Origin: Collinsella sp.
Lineage (GTDB): Bacteria; Actinomycetota; Coriobacteriia; Coriobacteriales; Coriobacteriaceae
Direction of reading: 5' to 3'
Length of the DNA: 64,000 bases
Assembly (NCBI GenBank): GCA_031292915.1
Contig: JAUMSH010000086.1
Span: 16,450-80,449 of the forward strand
Position 1 is the stretch's first letter. Each line of letters begins with the position of its first letter. The translations under genes and the position numbers were made by a program. Under the pieces are notes generated by a model. It was not told where the DNA came from. It saw only the letters and a program-made list of their open reading frames with translations, and searched no databases. Of the stretch, positions 4,822 through 57,405 are shown piece by piece.

Positions 4822-7800
4822 ATGAGATTGATTCACAACAGTCGTCTGCCGCAGTTTCGCACTCCGTTTGGCGCTGTGACCACTGGAACTTCCGTTTCGC
4901 TCTCGGTGATTTTGGAGGATGCCGACCCCAACCAGGCAACGCTTACGCTGCGCACCTGGGTCGATGAGATCGGTGAGTCTCTGTATCCCATGACGCACGA
5001 GGGCGACGGCATATTTACCGTAGAGCTTGAGTGCACCGAGCCCTGTCTTATCTGGTACAGCTTTATCTGCAATATCGAGGGTCAGCCCGAGGTCCGTTTG
5101 GGCGCACCGCAGGGTCGCACCGGTGGCGAGGGCGTAACTTACAACTACGCCGAGGTCCCGTCGTTCCAGATTACCGTCTACAAGCACCGCGAGAACCGTC
5201 CCACCTGGTACGAGCGCGGTATGGTCTACCAGATCTTCCCCGATCGCTACGCCCGCGACGAAAACTGGCGCGAGCGCACGCAGGCCGAAGTCGATAAGCC
5301 GCGCAAAGGAATCCAGCGCCGCATGGTCGAGGACTGGAACGAACCGCCCGAGTACGAGCGTGCCGAAGACGGCTCCATCAAGACCTGGGATTTTTACGGC
5401 GGTTCGCTCAAGGGTATCCAAAATGACCTGCCTCGCATTGCCGAGCTAGGCTTTACAGCCATCTACCTCAACCCCATCTTTGAGGCCGCGAGCAACCACC
5501 GCTACGACACGGCCGACTACACCAAGATCGACCCGATTCTGGGCACCGAGCAGGACTTTACCGAGCTGTGCGAGGCGGCCGAGAAGCTTGGCATTTCCAT
5601 CATTCTGGACGGTGTGTTCAACCATACGGGCGACGACTCGATCTACTTTAACCGCTACGGCAATTATCCCGGCGTCGGTGCTTGGCAGAGCGAGGACTCG
5701 CCGTGGCGCGATGCATTTTACTTCCATGAGGACGGTTCGTATGACTGCTGGTGGGGCGTGGGCAACATGCCCGCCATCAATGAGAGCTCCGAACTGGTGC
5801 GCGAGCGGCTCCTGGGCAAGGACGGCGTGATCCGTAAATGGCTGCGCGCCGGTGCCCATGGCTGGCGACTCGATGTGGCCGACGAGCTTTCCGACGACTT
5901 CCTGGCCGAGATCAAAAAGGCCGTGCTCGCCGAGAAGCCCGACGCGCTGCTGCTCGGCGAAGTCTGGGAAGACGCCTCCAACAAGATCAGCTATGGCCAC
6001 CTGCGCCGCTATCTGCAGGGCTCGGAGCTCGACTCCGCCATGGACTACCCCTTCCGCGACATGGTCATCGGCTTTTTGATGGGCTACAAGAACGCTTACC
6101 AGGCAGCCGAGGATATCGAAACCCTGCGCGAGAACTACCCGCGCGAGGCACTGGCCTGCGCGCTCAATCTGCTTTCGAGCCACGACCGCCCGCGCATCAT
6201 CTCGGTGCTCGGCGGTGGCCCCGACGAGTCGCAGCTGCCCGAGAGCGAGCGCAGCAAATGGCGCCTGGACGATAACTCGATGGGCCTGGCCAAAAGCCGT
6301 TTTTGGCTGGCGACGCTCATGCAGATGACCTTCCCGGGTGTGCCCTCGATCTATTATGGCGACGAGTACGGCCTGGAGGGCCTCACCGATCCGGGCAACC
6401 GCCGCACCCTGCCGACCAAAGACCAACTCCACGACTTCGACACACTGGCCATCGTTAAGAACGCGTCTGCCGTGCGCCGTGCGCTGCCCTTTATGGTCGA
6501 TGGCGAGATCAAGGCCTTTGCGCTCAACGACGAAGTCTTGGCTTACACCCGCACGGGCAATGACGGCGAGGCCGCGACGGTTATCATCAACCGCAGCCTG
6601 CGCAATTCGCACCGCGTGACGATTCCGGCGCTCGGCGAATGCGCGAGCGACGTGATCAGCGGTCACGAGTGCGAGATCCACAACGGTACCGTCACGCTCG
6701 ACCTGTACCCGCTGGGCTCTTCGATCATCTATCACCATGCCGAGAAGCGTCTGCAGGAGCCGCTCGATCATGGCGCGGGCGTTGTGTGCCACATCACCTC
6801 GGTGCCGACCGATGACGGCAAGCCCGGCACAATCGGTGCGCCCACGCGTCGCTTTATCGACCATCTGGCCGCTATGGGCATGCGCTACTGGCAAGTCCTG
6901 CCCGTCAACCCGACGGACTTCTTCCGCTCCCCTTACGCTGGGCCTTCGGCCTTTGCGGGCAATATTGACCTGCTGCCCGAGAGTCACGAGGAGCTGGCCG
7001 CCGACTTTGCTGCATGGAAGGCTCACGGCGGCGAGGATGCCGACCCGCTGTACACGGCGTTTAAACATCGCAACGCTGATTGGCTCGAAAAGTACTGCGT
7101 CTACATGGCCGTTAAGAAGTACTTTGAGGGCGAGTCGCGCCACGATTGGCCGGCAGATGTAGCGCGCTACAACGAGTATCTGATCGATGACAAGCGCTTC
7201 CACGACGAGGCCGAGCTGCAGGCGTACATGCAGTATCGCTTTGACCTTGCCTGGTGCGAGCTCATGAACTATGCGCACAAGAAGGGCATCGAGGTCATCG
7301 GCGATATCCCGATGTATGTCTCGGACGATTCGGCCGACGCGTGGAGCGAGCCCGAGAACTTCTGGCTGTCCGATACCGGCAAGGCGATTGAGATTTCGGG
7401 CGCGCCGCCCGACAACTTTGCGCCCGAGGGCCAGGTGTGGGGCAACCCCACCTTCCGATGGGATCGCATGAAGGAGAACGGCTATCGCTGGTGGATGGAC
7501 CGCCTGCGTCGTGCGTTTTCGCTCTACGACCGCGTGCGCCTGGACCACTTCCTGGGCTTCCACAGCTACTTTAGCATTCCCGCCGGTAAGGCCTGTGCCG
7601 ACGGCCGCTGGCTGGCAGGCCCGGGCAAGGACCTGTTCCAGACCGCCTATGACGAGCTGGGCCCGCTCAACTTTATCGCCGAGGATCTGGGCTATCTGAC
7701 GCCCGGCGTTCGCGCCATGGCTTCGACCTGCGGCTTCCCCGGCATGGACGTGCTGGAGTTTAGCGACTACGACGTTCGTTGCGGAATTCACCCCACACCG

Positions 7801-11427: not shown

Positions 11428-11523
11428 GTCCCCGGGGCGCCCGCCTATATCGTCCCGCGCGCAGTTTCGCAGCGCAGCGAGAATGTTTGAGCACGGGATG
11501 ATATAGGCGGGCGCCCCGGGGAC
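11428..11523. repeat. 30-bp-stem inverted repeat immediately 3' of def
   Basis: GTCCCCGGGGCGCCCGCCTATATCGTCCCG (11428-11457) pairs with CGGGATGATATAGGCGGGCGCCCCGGGGAC (11494-11523) with one mismatch. The loop is 36 nt. Confidence 0.85.
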
Positions 11524-11531
11524 GGTGGGAC

Positions 11532-12068
11532 CTACTCCGTCTCGCCCGGTCGAGCGCCGCGGGCCAGGGCGTCCTGGTACTCCTTGACGGCCTTGATACG
11601 CTGCATCGGCTTGAGTCGCTCGAACATGGTATTGCCGTGCAGGTGATCTATCTCGTGCTGCAGGCACACGCAGAACAGATCGCCTGTGGCCTCGTAGCGA
11701 ATCAGGTTGGCATCCAGGTCGTACGCCTCGACAACAACATGATCGGGACGCTCGATCTCGCAGCTTATGCCAGGGATGGAAAGGCAGCCCTCGCTAAACG
11801 GCACCAGATGGTCGCTCTGCTCAACAATGACAGGGTTGATGAGCACGTACGGGTCATAGTCGTTCTTGTCGGTGTAATCGCAGTCGATGGTAACGAGCTG
11901 AATGAGCTCACCGATCTGCGGAGCGGCCAGGCCGCAACCGCCGTTGTCGAACATCATCTTCTTCATCTTCTCGGCAAGCGCCTCGATCGCCGGGGTGATC
12001 TCCTCGATGACGGCGCACTCCTGGCGCAGACGAGGGTCGGGCGACAGTACGATTCCGTTGGCTTCCAT
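11532..12068 (-). CDS. def: peptide deformylase
   Basis: GCGLAAPQIG, EGCLSIPG and QHEIDHLHG motifs. The ATG at 12068 has GAAAGGA at a workable spacing; 12074 is an alternative start. Confidence 0.94.
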   Translation of the reverse strand: MEANGIVLSPDPRLRQECAVIEEITPAIEALAEKMKKMMFDNGGCGLAAPQIGELIQLVTIDCDYTDKNDYDPYVLINPVIVEQSDHLVPFSEGCLSIPGISCEIERPDHVVVEAYDLDANLIRYEATGDLFCVCLQHEIDHLHGNTMFERLKPMQRIKAVKEYQDALARGARPGETE

Positions 12069-12086
12069 GGCCATCCTTTCGGGTTG

Positions 12087-17717: not shown

Positions 17718-17761
17718 GCTAACAATAAAAGCCACAGCCAAATAAAAACGCACCAATAAGA

Positions 17762-17789
17762 GGTACCGGAACAACCGGTACTTCTTTTT
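17762..17789 (+). terminator. rho-independent terminator after metK
   Basis: GGTACCGG (17762-17769) pairs with CCGGTAC (17775-17781), followed by TTCTTTTT. Confidence 0.8.
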
Positions 17790-17884
17790 AATTTAAAGGC
17801 GGTTAAGATGAGCCTACCTGGGACATGGAATAAATCACAGGCCGATAAATTTTGCAGCAGAGCGACTCCAACCATGTATCCTAA

Positions 17885-18005
17885 GTTCCGAGGGCTTTAG
17901 TATTTGGTCGATCGCGAGTTCCGCACGAGCCGGAGGCCACTTAATGTGGCCTCCGTGCGAGCAGGACTGCCCGAGCAGGCGACCAAATACTAAAGCCCTC
18001 GGAAC
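17885..18005 (+). other. structured element A: perfect 26-bp outer inverted repeat enclosing a 69-nt conserved core (second copy at 57252-57405)
   Basis: The outer arms are 17885-17910 and 17980-18005, which are exact reverse complements. The core (17911-17979) is ATCGCGAGTTCCGCACGAGCC-[GGAGGCCAC TTAAT GTGGCCTCC]-GTGCGAGCAGGACTGCCCGAGCAGG. Confidence 0.85.
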
Positions 18006-18059
18006 GGCGGGAAGAGTATGCCCCGCCAATCGGGACGACGGGATAGAACAGGAGCGCAT

Positions 18060-19667
18060 ATGGCAGGCAAGCCGCAAACACTAGCTACGACCTCGGCATT
18101 CGAGATCTTGGGCCCCGTCATGGTCGGCCCCAGTTCATCGCACACCGCCGGCGCCCTGCGCTGCGCCCAAGTTGCCGCCAGCCTGCTGGAAGGCCGCATC
18201 ACCAAAGTCACCTTTGGCCTGTGGAACTCCTTCGCCCACACCTACCGCGGCCACGGCACCGACCGTGCGCTCGTCGCGGGCATCCTGGGTCTCGACACCG
18301 ATGACGAGAACATCAAGCAGGCCTTCAACCTCGCAAGCGAGCAGGGCCTCGAATATCACTTTAACATCAAGGGCGACGACGCCTCCATCCACCCCAATAC
18401 CGTCGACATCGACATGGTCGACGACACGGGCGCCACGGCACAGGTTCGCGGCGAGAGCCTGGGCGGCGGCAAGATGCGCATCAGCCGCATTAACGGCGTC
18501 GGCGTCGACATATCGGGCATGTATTCCACGCTCTTCGTGGCGCACAAGGACGTCCCCGGTGTACTCGCCGCGCTCACCAACCTGCTCGCCTACGCCCACG
18601 TAAACATCGCCTTCTGCCGCACCTACCGCACCGAAGTGGGCGGCCAGGCCTACTCCGTCTTTGAGACCGACGGCGCGCCCGACGACACCGTCGTCCCTAT
18701 GCTGCGCAAGCTCGACAATGTCGATTACGCAACGTTTATCGAGCTCCCCGGTTCTGCCTCGTCGCTCTCCCCCGGCGTCTCGGCCAAGGAAATCTTCGAC
18801 GACGGCGAGCAGCTGCTCGATGCGTGCGAGGAACTGGGGCTTAGCATCGGCGCCGTCATGGCCGTTCGCGAGGCGCGTCTGACCGGCGAGGCCCACGCCG
18901 TCGCCGCCATGCGCCGCGTGCTCGACGTCATGCGCGAGGAGACCACGGCCCCCATCGCCAATCCGCAGCGCTCGCTCGGTGGACTAATCGGCGGCGAGGC
19001 CAAACTCGTCGATGCCACCAGCCGCAACGATTTGAGTGCAAGCCTGATGGGCGCCGTCCAGACCGATGCCGTGGCCCGCGCCATGGCCGTGCTCGAGCGC
19101 TCCGCCACCATGGGCGTGATCGTCGCAGCTCCGACGGCAGGCTCCGCGGGTGTTGTACCCGGCTGCGTGCTGGCGCTCGCCGATCGCCTGCAGCTCGACG
19201 ACGAGCAGGTCATGGACGCGCTCTACTGCGCAGCCGCCATCGGCCTCAACCTCACCACAAGCGCCTGTGTTGCCGGCGCCGAGGGCGGCTGCCAAGCCGA
19301 GGTGGGAAGCGCCGCTGCCATGGCAGCCGCCGCGTTGGTGCAGATGCTCGGCGGCACGCCCGAGCAGGCGCTCGACGCCAGTTCCATCGCGCTGAGTAAC
19401 CTGCTGGGCCTCGTTTGCGACCCCGTCGGTGGCCTCGTGGAGGTGCCCTGCCAAAACCGCAACGCCATCGGCGTGGCAGCGGCCTTTAGCTCGGCACAAC
19501 TCGCCCTCGCAGGCATTAAGAGCTTGGTGCCGTTTGACCAGATGGCACACGTCATGCTTTCGGTGGGCCACGCGTTGCCGGCCACGCTGCGCGAGACGGC
19601 AAAGGGTGGCATCGCGCAGGCTCCGGCCGCACTTTCGGCCTGTGCAAAATGCGGTGTGTGCGGATAG
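18060..19667 (+). CDS. sdaA: L-serine dehydratase, iron-sulfur type, fused beta-alpha chain
   Basis: N-terminal beta-type FEILGPVMVGPSSSHTAG plus an ACT-like region. The C-terminal alpha-type region has TAGSAGVVPG, GGCQAEVGSA and CDPVGGLVEVPCQNRNA. AGGAG lies 5 nt before the ATG at 18060. Confidence 0.9.
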   Translation: MAGKPQTLATTSAFEILGPVMVGPSSSHTAGALRCAQVAASLLEGRITKVTFGLWNSFAHTYRGHGTDRALVAGILGLDTDDENIKQAFNLASEQGLEYHFNIKGDDASIHPNTVDIDMVDDTGATAQVRGESLGGGKMRISRINGVGVDISGMYSTLFVAHKDVPGVLAALTNLLAYAHVNIAFCRTYRTEVGGQAYSVFETDGAPDDTVVPMLRKLDNVDYATFIELPGSASSLSPGVSAKEIFDDGEQLLDACEELGLSIGAVMAVREARLTGEAHAVAAMRRVLDVMREETTAPIANPQRSLGGLIGGEAKLVDATSRNDLSASLMGAVQTDAVARAMAVLERSATMGVIVAAPTAGSAGVVPGCVLALADRLQLDDEQVMDALYCAAAIGLNLTTSACVAGAEGGCQAEVGSAAAMAAAALVQMLGGTPEQALDASSIALSNLLGLVCDPVGGLVEVPCQNRNAIGVAAAFSSAQLALAGIKSLVPFDQMAHVMLSVGHALPATLRETAKGGIAQAPAALSACAKCGVCG

Positions 19668-50992: not shown

Positions 50993-51069
50993 TGGTAGCC
51001 CGTACCAGATTCGAACTGGTGATCTCCGCCTTGAGAGGGCGGCGTCCTAAACCGCTAGACGAACGGGCC
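50993..51069 (-). tRNA. tRNA-Glu (anticodon CUC), CCA encoded
   Basis: The minus strand reads GGCCCGT TC GTCT AGCGGTTTA GGAC G CCGCC CTCTCAA GGCGG AGATC ACCAG TTCGAAT CTGGT ACGGGCT A CCA. This folds as a full cloverleaf with anticodon CTC. Confidence 0.92.
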
Positions 51070-51091: not shown

Positions 51092-51168
51092 TGGTAGCCC
51101 GTACCAGATTCGAACTGGTGATCTCCGCCTTGAGAGGGCGGCGTCCTAAACCGCTAGACGAACGGGCC
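51092..51168 (-). tRNA. tRNA-Glu (anticodon CUC), identical second copy
   Basis: Its 77 nt are identical to 50993-51069, with a 22-nt spacer between the copies. Confidence 0.92.
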
Positions 51169-56850: not shown

Positions 56851-57114
56851 CTACTCGCCAAGACCGCTCTTGATGAGCTCGATGGCAGCAGCCAGAGCCT
56901 CGGCCTCGTCAGCGCCGTCGCACTTGACCTCGACCTCGGTGCCGCAGGGGATACCAGCAGCCATGAGGGCCATCGGGGACTTGCCGTTGACCTCCTTCTC
57001 GGGGGTAACGACCGTCACGTCACAGGCGTACTTGCCCATGGTGGAGGCGAAGAGGCCGGCCGGACGCATGTGAAGACCCTGCGGATTGACGAGGGTAGCC
57101 TTCTCAGAAACCAT
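56851..57114 (-). CDS. ptsH: phosphocarrier protein HPr
   Basis: MVSEKATLVNPQGLHMRPAG has the His-15 context, and GKSPMALMAAG has the Ser-46 context. Confidence 0.95.
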   Translation of the reverse strand: MVSEKATLVNPQGLHMRPAGLFASTMGKYACDVTVVTPEKEVNGKSPMALMAAGIPCGTEVEVKCDGADEAEALAAAIELIKSGLGE

Positions 57115-57251: not shown

Positions 57252-57405
57252 CGCTTGCTCGCCCCCAGGGGGCCGGGCGTGGCCAGTGAGATTTCCTGCT
57301 CTACAGTCCTGCTCGCCCGAAGAGCACATTGAGTGCTCTTCGGCTCGTGCGGAACTCGCGATAAATCTCGCAGGCCGCGCCCGGCCCCCTGTGGGCGAGC
57401 AAGCT
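57252..57405 (-). other. structured element B: ~43-bp imperfect outer inverted repeat enclosing the same conserved 68-nt core as element A
   Basis: The outer arms are 57252-57294 and 57363-57405. On the minus strand the core (57295-57362) reads ATCGCGAGTTCCGCACGAGCC-[GAAGAGCAC TCAAT GTGCTCTTC]-GGGCGAGCAGGACTGTAGAGCAGG. Confidence 0.85.

Follow-up and report, generated by a model that had tools for sequence, protein, structure and literature searches.

A multi-copy repeat family of Coriobacteriia folding into nested hairpins with a conserved tip and locus-specific stems

Introduction

REP/BIME elements and REPINs, known from Enterobacteria and Pseudomonas, are short palindromic intergenic repeats that number tens to hundreds of copies, are found mostly behind stop codons or within operons and are transcribed in 3′ UTRs; in E. 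coli, the REP elements act as barriers or processing sites for mRNA 3′ ends. The element described here is closest in kind to the REP and MITE repeats, but it fails the defining features of both, since it is the interior that is conserved, not the stem or the termini. Its hosts are mainly members of Collinsella, an abundant human gut genus that has been linked to disease.

A preliminary description of the window—this term being used throughout for the whole 64-kb stretch of DNA analysed—recognised two copies of the element, designated A and B, and offered two readings of them, i.e. an undescribed structured non-coding RNA or 5′-leader element, or a small non-autonomous element inserting into the centre of pre-existing palindromes. 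The core common to A and B represents the conserved tip of the nested hairpins that make up a multi-copy repeat family of Coriobacteriia; the element is a genomic repeat and not a leader of sdaA or ptsH, most copies being located between a stop codon and the real terminator.

Results

Copies of the element in the window

The features of the two copies recognised originally, of a third copy (C) and of the terminator preceding copy A are as follows:

17885-18005, plus strand: copy A as a whole, the core within inverted arms
17885..17910, plus strand: 5′ (left) basal-stem arm of copy A, locus-specific, 26 nt, 100% complementary to 17980-18005
17911..17979, plus strand: conserved 69-nt core of copy A (covariance model R1: 110.2 bits, E = 1.5e-26)
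17917-17921 and 17964-17968, plus strand: invariant helix of copy A, AGTTC paired with GGACT
17931-17940 and 17946-17955, plus strand: apical stem of copy A, closed by the loop TTAAT at 17941-17945
17980..18005, plus strand: 3′ (right) arm of copy A
18017..18036, plus strand: displaced right-arm remnant of another sdaA-locus allele, tatgccccgccaatcgggac, seen in the alignment of ten sdaA loci
17758..17786, plus strand: canonical intrinsic terminator of metK (context only), a 12-bp stem followed by TTTAATTT
57253-57404, minus strand: copy B as a whole
57363..57404, minus strand: 5′ (left) arm of copy B, 42 nt, 90% complementary to 57253-57294
57295..57362, minus strand: conserved 68-nt core of copy B (R1: 97.1 bits, E = 4.5e-23)
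57253..57294, minus strand: 3′ (right) arm of copy B
11428..11523, plus strand: copy C, a short variant (R1: 25.6 bits, E = 4e-4, filters off)

The organisation proposed originally, a core of 68–69 nt shared by A and B inside unrelated long inverted repeats, was recovered for both arms and core. The 21-mer ATCGCGAGTTCCGCACGAGCC from the 5′ end of the core is present in two exact copies in the window against 0.02 expected, none of 100 shuffles containing two or more, and GCGAGCAGGACTG is identical in both copies. In copy A, the internal loop is formed by ATCGCG on its 5′ side and TG-CCC-GAGCAGG on its 3′ side, and an AC bulge together with a tandem GA/GA separates the invariant helix from the apical stem. 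The latter is formed by GGAGGCCAC/GTGGCCTCC in A and by GAAGAGCAC/GTGCTCTTC in B, the respective loops being TTAAT and TCAAT; the three compensatory changes reported for its 9 bp are real, each being present on both strands with the pairing kept. The outer repeats, described as having no sequence in common, indeed differ between A and B; across the family, however, the inner 10–15 nt follow a loose consensus, cATAAGGTYG, adjoining the core, and the distal parts of the arms are all GC-rich. On folding, copy A yielded -83.8 kcal/mol (z = -9.9) and copy B -116.9 kcal/mol (z = -12.1), no shuffle folding as well in either case.

The neighbours, named by Pfam, follow the order metK, terminator, A and sdaA for the first copy, and PTS EIIB/EIIA gene, B, ptsH and ptsI for the second one. 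The distances to the downstream genes given previously also agree with the present positions, the ATG of sdaA at 18060 being 54–55 nt past A and that of ptsH at 57114 being 138 nt past B. As shown by the metK terminator at 17758-17786, copy A is located behind the own terminator of the upstream gene and, lying between that terminator and the start of sdaA, it is probably within a 5′ UTR; copy B is situated in the spacer upstream of an AT-rich region read as the likely ptsH promoter. Both represent minority-context copies within the family.

Copy C consists of 30-nt arms with one G-T mismatch and of a 36-nt core, cgcgcagtttcgcagcgcagcgagaatgtttgagca, without the apical stem. It is located 8 nt past the stop codon of def (11532-12074, minus strand) and is antisense to that gene; beyond it, there is a canonical minus-strand terminator at 11353-11325, so the order reads def stop codon (11532), 8 nt, copy C, 73 nt, terminator (11353-11325) and fmt, both def and fmt having been named by Pfam.

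As far as alleles at the same loci are concerned, the remnant at 18017-18036 downstream of copy A corresponds to a sequence, ttatgccccgcccctcgggac, that is the actual right arm in three other sdaA loci (L007, L039 and L122). The arms of copy A themselves recur at two orthologous sdaA loci (L092 and L097); in further Collinsella genomes, this locus has other arm alleles. The outermost 11 bp of the copy B arms (gcttgctcgcc / ggcgagcaagc) are common to all ptsH-locus alleles.

Size, taxonomic spread and novelty of the family

The search for further copies of the core block, recommended in the preliminary description, revealed many of them, in Collinsella as well as in other Coriobacteriia. A scan with an exact 18-mer from the core, using one genome per species, gave at least 120 loci, and among the matches listed nearly all were from Collinsella, four being from Eggerthellaceae or Rubneribacter. 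The nhmmer profile and covariance model R1 identified 146 copies in ~1 Mb of collected loci, including those with a divergent 18-mer. From the loci listed, 109 complete copies were extracted, the arms of which measure 19–42 bp, have mostly 0–2 mismatches and can be divided into ~26 types, each type representing one genomic locus that is orthologous across many Collinsella species. In a single 900-kb record of C. aerofaciens (NZ_OY725717.1) the element is present at 11 places, and at 3 in the window.

The statement that the core resembles no known RNA family was borne out by Rfam 15, which gave no match at the gathering threshold around A or B, the only ones in the whole window being two tRNAs; membership in the Collinsella-1 motif, riboswitches and known ribozymes contained in Rfam 15 was thus not indicated. 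With E up to 10, the regions around A and B matched only snaR-A (20 bits vs. a gathering score of 98) and ivy-DE (17 vs. 41), both regarded as long-hairpin artefacts. No matching repeat family was found in the searchable literature, and this hairpin repeat of gut Coriobacteriia has apparently been undescribed so far. A phage or plasmid origin was rejected: the phage collection gave no match, and the sole 'plasmid' match was the chromosomal-looking 900-kb C. aerofaciens record. The 16-mer matches in viral sequences were ascribed to chance; two viral contigs do contain a true copy, which in their case stands beside a prophage end.

Fold of the element and covariation of its helices

Each copy forms a single irregular hairpin of about 95–155 nt. 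From the base upwards, it comprises a locus-specific, almost perfectly paired basal stem of 19–44 bp; an asymmetric internal loop made up of (A)UCGCG (5′) and UG-YYY-GAGCAGG (3′); an invariant 5-bp helix AGUUC/GGACU with one U.G pair; a C/A mismatch, a 2-bp helix and the AC bulge with the tandem GA/GA, the latter replaced by Watson–Crick pairs in some variants; and, at the tip, a covarying 12-bp apical stem with one bulged base and the UUAAU loop. The bulged base is usually T, but A was found in L030, G in B and C in L055, and the occurrence of all four bases fits an unpaired position.

Covariation was measured on 44 locus-distinct copies, with 500 shuffles and a 3′ partner slid by 1–3 columns as controls. 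Standard pairs occupy 91.7% of the cells compared with 73.1% in the shuffles, and the covariation score is 0.458 compared with 0.149, neither of the two values having been reached by any of the 500 shuffles; in the slid controls, 34–45% of the cells are paired. Two-sided changes were observed for 14 of 15 pairs in the arms and for 5 of 9 in the apical stem, and the 5-bp helix does not vary among the 44 copies. Two variants found without the 18-mer, GCACGAACA..GUCGUGAGC and GCACGCAAA..GUCUUGCGC, still have the lower apical stem paired, the second one additionally converting GA/GA to G-C/C-G; since these were recovered independently of the 18-mer, the worry about ascertainment is removed. The helices thus covary beyond both the shuffled and the slid controls, as would those of a structured RNA or single-stranded DNA element. 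The covariance model and the covariation analysis, both proposed as checks earlier, therefore back the core as a conserved structured element, its helices being supported by many independent compensatory changes.

Three resemblances were considered and set aside. A kink-turn is unlikely, because the AC bulge has 2 nt instead of 3 and variant 3 has Watson–Crick pairs in place of GA/GA. The complement strand has a 9-mer, ACAGUCCUG, in common with the hairpin-ribozyme substrate, which was treated as chance, since the 9-mer stretch is in a helix and the Rfam model gave no match. As to a small ORF starting from an AUG in the loop, the Eggerthellaceae copies have other loops, without AUG.

Constraint on the core and evolution of the arms

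Among 20 closely related ptsH-locus alleles, all with identical HPr, nucleotide diversity (π) was lowest in the core (0.003), reaching 0.10 in each arm and 0.073 in the flank downstream. In the same alleles, polymorphism was seen at 24 of the 42 pair positions of the arms, at least two Watson–Crick states being present at 19 of these, and 816 arm cells are Watson–Crick paired vs. 24 that are not. In the tip, it is the sequence that is constrained, and in the stem the pairing alone: the arms are about 97% paired, differ by locus and change together on both sides. Complementary swapping of mid-arm blocks on both sides was seen at several loci, e.g. between the sdaA alleles L007 and L051, between L043 and L087, and in L146 at ptsH.

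A few core variants recur at different loci, namely the apical stems GGAGAGCAC, GAAGAGCAC, GGAGGCCAC and GGAAAGCAC, the loop variants UCC, CCC and UA, as well as GAGC, GAGCC and GAGUC, which suggests an exchange between copies. The inner arm common to non-orthologous copies does not exceed 12–15 nt, and there is no sign of recent transposition of a long-armed unit. On the element strand, the arm mismatches are 24 of the G.U type and 20 of the A.C type, i.e. without a strand-specific excess of wobble pairs, so that the arms fit a hairpin at the DNA level just as well as selection on an RNA of one strand.

Position and orientation relative to genes

Genes were called with a GC3-filtered ORF caller that had been checked on the window, and 42 locus types were classified. 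In 24 of them, corresponding to ~16 independent loci, the 3′ arm of the element is found 7–46 nt from the stop codon of a convergent gene; here the element is always antisense to the gene, the reverse arrangement being present in no locus. The mRNA of such a gene would therefore carry the complement of the strand described originally. For manA and the UvrD-type helicase gene, this antisense post-stop rule was confirmed by the RefSeq annotation of C. aerofaciens. Where two genes converge, two copies often stand head to head, 120–250 nt apart, each one being antisense to the gene that it follows. The genes next to the element show no relation to each other, encoding Def, the UvrD-type helicase, ManA, PNPase, a DUF711 protein, an SDR, a PLP enzyme, peptidase S58, a GT2 member, FecCD and a PcsB/CHAP hydrolase.

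Neither side of the elements is followed by a T-run, i.e. they lack the U-tract of an intrinsic terminator. A canonical hairpin with a T-run, pointing leftward (in the reverse-complement direction), occurs within 250 nt beyond the 5′ side of the element at 21 of 39 loci, and at the loci of the 3′-UTR class the canonical terminator follows 30–120 nt beyond the element. A role of the element itself as promoter or terminator was rejected, as neither a sigma-70-like promoter nor a U-tract was found; replication strand was likewise rejected as the cause of the orientation, both orientations being present in the window and the head-to-head pairs being only 120–250 nt apart.

In ~8 loci, including A and B, the element is placed behind the terminator of the upstream gene in the same orientation as both neighbours, either before a promoter-like region or directly before a start codon (sdaA and L030/L096). 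The shared orientation with the downstream gene noticed in the preliminary description is thus correct for A and B but does not extend to the family, in view of the antisense post-stop loci. The reading as a 5′ leader or gene-specific non-coding RNA is not supported either, the element accompanying unrelated housekeeping genes at over 40 locus types, with ~16 loci having the copy 7–46 nt behind a stop codon in the opposite orientation and never the reverse.

Filled and empty sites, deletions and cassettes

The comparison of filled and empty sites suggested earlier did reveal short GC-rich palindromes at the empty ones, in L060 and in two alleles of the ptsH locus (L152 and L159). In L060, the palindrome CGCCCGCCCG-C-CGGGCGGGCG alone stands at the site that is occupied by a copy in L120; the sequences on either side give a clean alignment, and the stem of this empty site agrees with the outermost bases of the arms in L120. 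At ptsH, the 11-bp outer palindrome, gc(t)tgctcgcc..ggcgagca(a)gc, encloses two quite dissimilar kinds of element, type I resembling B and type II combining other arms with the variant-3 core; in L152 and L159 there is just a bare palindrome, of 19 and 23 nt, respectively. Both of these empty alleles agree exactly with the product expected if slippage took place across the direct repeats, GGGCG or GGCGGG, that the two arms contain, and five further alleles (L150, L196, L198, L206 and L209) are clear microhomology deletions. From these sequences, the empty palindromes would be explained equally well as slippage deletions; with the ptsH empties matching the slippage product and five plain deletions at the locus, the direction of change can be read either way. 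Since the junctions are inside palindromic GC repeats, a target-site duplication is indistinguishable from the homology used in slippage. The second of the original readings, an element in pre-existing palindromes, consequently stands in part: the core is centred in locus-specific palindromes and the empty sites are short GC-rich palindromes, but the inner 10–15 nt of the arms belong to the repeat itself and slippage explains the empties equally. The possibility raised at the same time that the outer repeats are simply terminators was not supported, the outer palindromes lacking the T-run of an intrinsic terminator.

At sdaA, the element is absent from relatives with an 87% identical SdaA, whereas a relative at 86% has one with unrelated 40-bp arms. 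In L126 and L135, which are without the element, a ~95-nt promoter-like spacer is missing as well, so that the boundaries of an empty site are not readable there. The interval between manA and the helicase gene contains, in L044 and L218, a 2.1-kb cassette of two ORFs together with an additional copy of the element in inverted orientation, the ORFs of the L044 cassette having no Pfam match. No transposase adjoins any copy examined, and tblastn with one IS200-type TnpA sequence as query found no homologue in the 1.27 Mb of collected DNA. Among the 80 metagenome loci of ptsH, 18 are too short upstream to reach past the element, the match in many of these starting 177–314 nt from the locus start.

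Discussion

Proposed role and rival explanations

Based on the above results, the interpretation given about an even chance of being correct is that of a REP/MITE-like nested palindromic repeat transcribed in 3′ UTRs, the apex of which is read by a trans-acting factor. Once transcribed, the element would form a very stable 3′-UTR stem-loop, acting at the 3′ ends of mRNAs as a barrier or as a site of processing; such a role cannot apply to the ~8 loci behind a terminator, A and B included. The sequence-constrained apex may be the recognition module for that factor, be it a host RNA- or DNA-binding protein or an enzyme spreading the repeat; no candidate partner protein was identified. At the level of DNA, core variants would be exchanged between copies, the two arms may change in concert through either selection for pairing or hairpin-templated correction, and frequent slippage deletions would shape the family. 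Against this interpretation it can be held that the low diversity of the core could stem from gene conversion among copies and not from selection for function.

Several observations would also be expected from a selfish non-autonomous mobile element that has been inserted into the apex of pre-existing GC-rich hairpins behind genes, a serious rival, though one judged rather unlikely. The mobile unit would be the core with ~12 nt of inner arm on each side, probably inserted as a single-stranded hairpin, and the outer, locus-specific parts of the arms would derive from the hairpin that had served as the target. This agrees with the pair L120/L060, in which the flanks are clean and the outer arm bases match the empty stem; with the unrelated types I and II in one outer palindrome at ptsH beside the bare palindromes of L152 and L159; with the outermost 8–10 bp that are common to alleles with different mid-arms at several orthologous loci; with the limit of 12–15 nt to the inner arm that non-orthologous copies share; with the extra inverted copy accompanying the two-gene cassette in L044 and L218; and with the near-identical cores in two bacterial families. 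However, the ptsH empties are just the deletions expected between direct repeats of the arms, with five further unambiguous deletions at the locus, and most loci are stably orthologous across many Collinsella species. No two loci have long identical arms and hence there is no sign of recent transposition; neither a target-site duplication nor a terminal inverted repeat of the core is evident; the outer hairpins are without terminator T-runs; and no transposase was seen beside any copy, the search of the 1.27 Mb with one IS200-type TnpA query having been negative. The arms without strand-specific wobble bias and their near-perfect pairing over up to 42 bp—more typical of DNA palindromes than of RNA stems—would also fit an element acting in DNA rather than as RNA, the hairpin or cruciform being bound by a chromosomal protein (e.g. 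a topoisomerase, a nucleoid protein or a site-specific recombinase) and perhaps also receiving cassettes or prophages. The inverted copies bracketing the accessory two-gene cassette, the copy next to a prophage end and the copies in untranscribed-looking spacers between terminators and promoters are in line with it. It is nevertheless held to be decidedly improbable, because the strict gene-relative orientation, which is opposite in the head-to-head pairs 120–250 nt apart, points to transcription and not to chromosome architecture, features typical of RNA are seen in the invariant U.G of the 5-bp helix and in the tandem GA motif, and there is only one case each of a cassette and a prophage.

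The least probable of all, and very hard to defend, is a gene-specific cis-regulatory 5′ leader—a riboswitch or an attenuator—of sdaA and ptsH. It is true that copy A ends 54 nt before the start of sdaA and that the conserved TTGCAG..TATCCT directly precedes its left arm, so that the mRNA could begin with the hairpin, and the copy of L030/L096 abuts the ribosome-binding site of the downstream gene (start MIKITVP…). A start codon is, however, abutted in only 2 of ~42 locus types; the relatives with 87% identical SdaA do without the element, having the metK terminator directly before the ribosome-binding site; copy B is upstream of the AT-rich likely promoter of ptsH; the neighbouring genes are functionally unrelated; and a consensus scan finds no promoter at these sites. 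Going beyond the preferred repeat transcribed in 3′ UTRs, it is also conceivable, albeit doubtful, that the family represents either a structure-targeting element placed at hairpin apices or the RNA platform of a ribonucleoprotein system acting in 3′ UTRs. The former would, speculatively, be a ~95-nt module with the tip read by an enzyme, an orientation defined by transcription and re-templated arms; the latter, put forward with equal reserve, would be an undescribed system general to Coriobacteriia.

Significance

A repeat with tens of copies per genome probably shapes the 3′ UTRs of Collinsella and breaks metagenome assemblies, many ptsH contigs ending within a few hundred nucleotides upstream of ptsH, about at the position of the element. 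It marks sites of deletion, allele replacement and cassette insertion, and offers a natural test of how the pairing of long palindromes is kept up, by selection or by hairpin-templated correction. Through the core, the putative factor recognising the tip may be sought, the covariance model could be used to annotate the family, and the strict orientation rule is a simple prediction for transcript mapping.

Comparison with known systems

With the REP elements and REPINs, the family shares the short, palindromic, multi-copy and extragenic character and the location mostly at gene 3′ ends, as well as a hairpin kept by compensatory changes and orthologous positions across strains. It differs in that their stem is conserved and recognised, whereas here the tip is conserved and the stem is locus-specific, non-orthologous copies having at most 12–15 nt near the core in common. 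The gene-relative orientation is strict in the present family. REPs and REPINs are associated with a gene for a RAYT (Y1/HUH) transposase, which typically has repeats on both sides; in the 1.27 Mb searched here with one IS200 TnpA sequence, no match was obtained near the copies. Its likeness to the MITEs (Correia/NEMIS, ERIC, RUP, BOX) consists in being non-coding, multi-copy, intergenic, hairpin-forming, often transcribed and assembly-breaking. MITEs, however, conserve terminal inverted repeats and carry target-site duplications, whereas in this family the interior is conserved and the ends vary; the ends of the hairpin differ by locus and the core itself has no terminal inverted repeats. Presence/absence of the MITE kind was seen at L120 vs. 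L060 and at ptsH, with the junctions within palindromic GC repeats.

A position at the apex of a palindrome, with short palindromes as the empty alleles, is also known from IS1397/ISKpn1, from IS110/IS1111 members in REP or attC sites and from class C group II introns, which insert behind terminators; these elements encode a protein or a ribozyme and are ~1 kb or more in length, in contrast to the 95-nt non-coding unit described here. A retron, in which the inverted repeats a1/a2 enclose msr-msd and the gene for the reverse transcriptase comes next, is not indicated either, the downstream genes being sdaA, ptsH and others and most copies being at the 3′ end of convergent genes; the sole reverse transcriptase seen (L219) is ~2.8 kb away, inside a prophage. 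The correction of quasi-palindromes by template switch or arm conversion resembles the behaviour of the arms, which change together, are ~97% paired despite their fast divergence and have blocks swapped complementarily; as a mutational process, it could explain the arms but not the conserved tip.

The attC sites of integrons are similar in being imperfect hairpins directly behind an ORF, in fixed orientation, recognised by structure and having conserved extra-helical bases with a sequence that is variable between sites. In attC, it is the base that is conserved (the R and L boxes) and the tip that varies, the reverse of the present arrangement; the RYYYAAC / GTTRRRY (R''/R') boxes of attC stand at its base, which is variable here, no GTTRRRY core site was seen on reading the sequences, and the copies are scattered behind housekeeping genes without a cassette array. 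The design of the family inverts that of REPs, MITEs and attC sites, the tip being invariant and the stem hypervariable yet perfectly paired.

Copies of the repeat within the window

The nested-hairpin repeat of Coriobacteriia, a conserved core on locus-specific paired arms, has a third and shorter member in the window, copy C, and the copy preceding sdaA (copy A) adjoins a pair of conserved motifs.

Window 11428-11523, plus strand: copy C, between def and fmt
Window 17850-17884 and the orthologous sdaA loci: conserved motifs TTTTGCAG and CCATGTATCCT, identified by alignment

Copy C consists of a 36-nt core lacking the apical stem and flanked by 30-nt arms; it is placed 8 nt past the stop codon of def, antisense to the operon, and a canonical terminator is found 73 nt beyond it. 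The two motifs at sdaA are located directly 5' of the left arm of copy A and are kept across the orthologous loci, the 19 nt separating them being variable in the sdaA-locus alignment. The pair looks like a -35/-10 pair, with which the sdaA mRNA would begin at the foot of the hairpin; a simple consensus promoter scan made no call at this pair.

It should also be mentioned that the window contains two tRNA genes on the minus strand (50996-51069 and 51095-51168), separated by 25 nt and having an identical Rfam score of 62.3 bits; they are unrelated to the repeat.

Arrangement of the copies in other genomes and metagenomes

The ptsH loci from metagenomes form a set of 80 (L138-L217), in 18 of which the sequence upstream of ptsH is too short to extend beyond the element; many of the matches begin just 177-314 nt from the locus start. 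In several contigs (L140, L143, L173, L174, L178, L185 and L192) the ptsH right arm is fused with a left arm from a different locus, and two further contigs (L151 and L202) carry an inverted core. Both arrangements could be assembly chimeras formed at the repeat, or could reflect real recombination between copies.

Some repeat loci are adjoined by two to three degenerate direct repeats, each about 48 nt long, and one locus has copies in tandem.

L060, about 2640-2810; L120, about 7080-7260 (reverse strand); L009, upstream of the copy: direct repeats of about 48 nt
L124, 1330-1566: two repeat copies oriented alike, with about 55 nt between them

The direct repeats follow the pattern gggaaac.g.gtccc....gag......attctggga....ctttccg, their units being about 73% alike by eye, and were not reported by Tandem Repeats Finder. 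The tandem copies of L124, a match among genome contigs that we assign to Eggerthellaceae/Rubneribacter on the basis of its divergent core, lie within a stretch of about 2 kb without a confident gene call.

Viral contigs and a bracketed cassette

L219, 8379-13294 (IMG/VR UViG 3300045988_169285), and L220: viral contigs with a repeat copy
L044, 341-2693; L218, 22690-25030 (about 812.7-815.0 kb of NZ_OY725717.1, a 900-kb C. aerofaciens record): two-ORF cassette of 2.1 kb

In both viral contigs, the copy is positioned about 0.8 kb past an endolysin-like gene; it appears to lie in the host flank at a prophage end. In L219, an ORF of 524 aa that encodes a reverse-transcriptase domain is found about 2.8 kb from the copy. 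The cassette, situated between manA and a gene for a UvrD-type helicase, has a copy of the repeat on either side, the two in inverted orientation, and L042 and L091 have a single copy and no cassette. Neither of its ORFs matched Pfam; by eye, one resembles a nucleotidyltransferase toxin and the other its partner.
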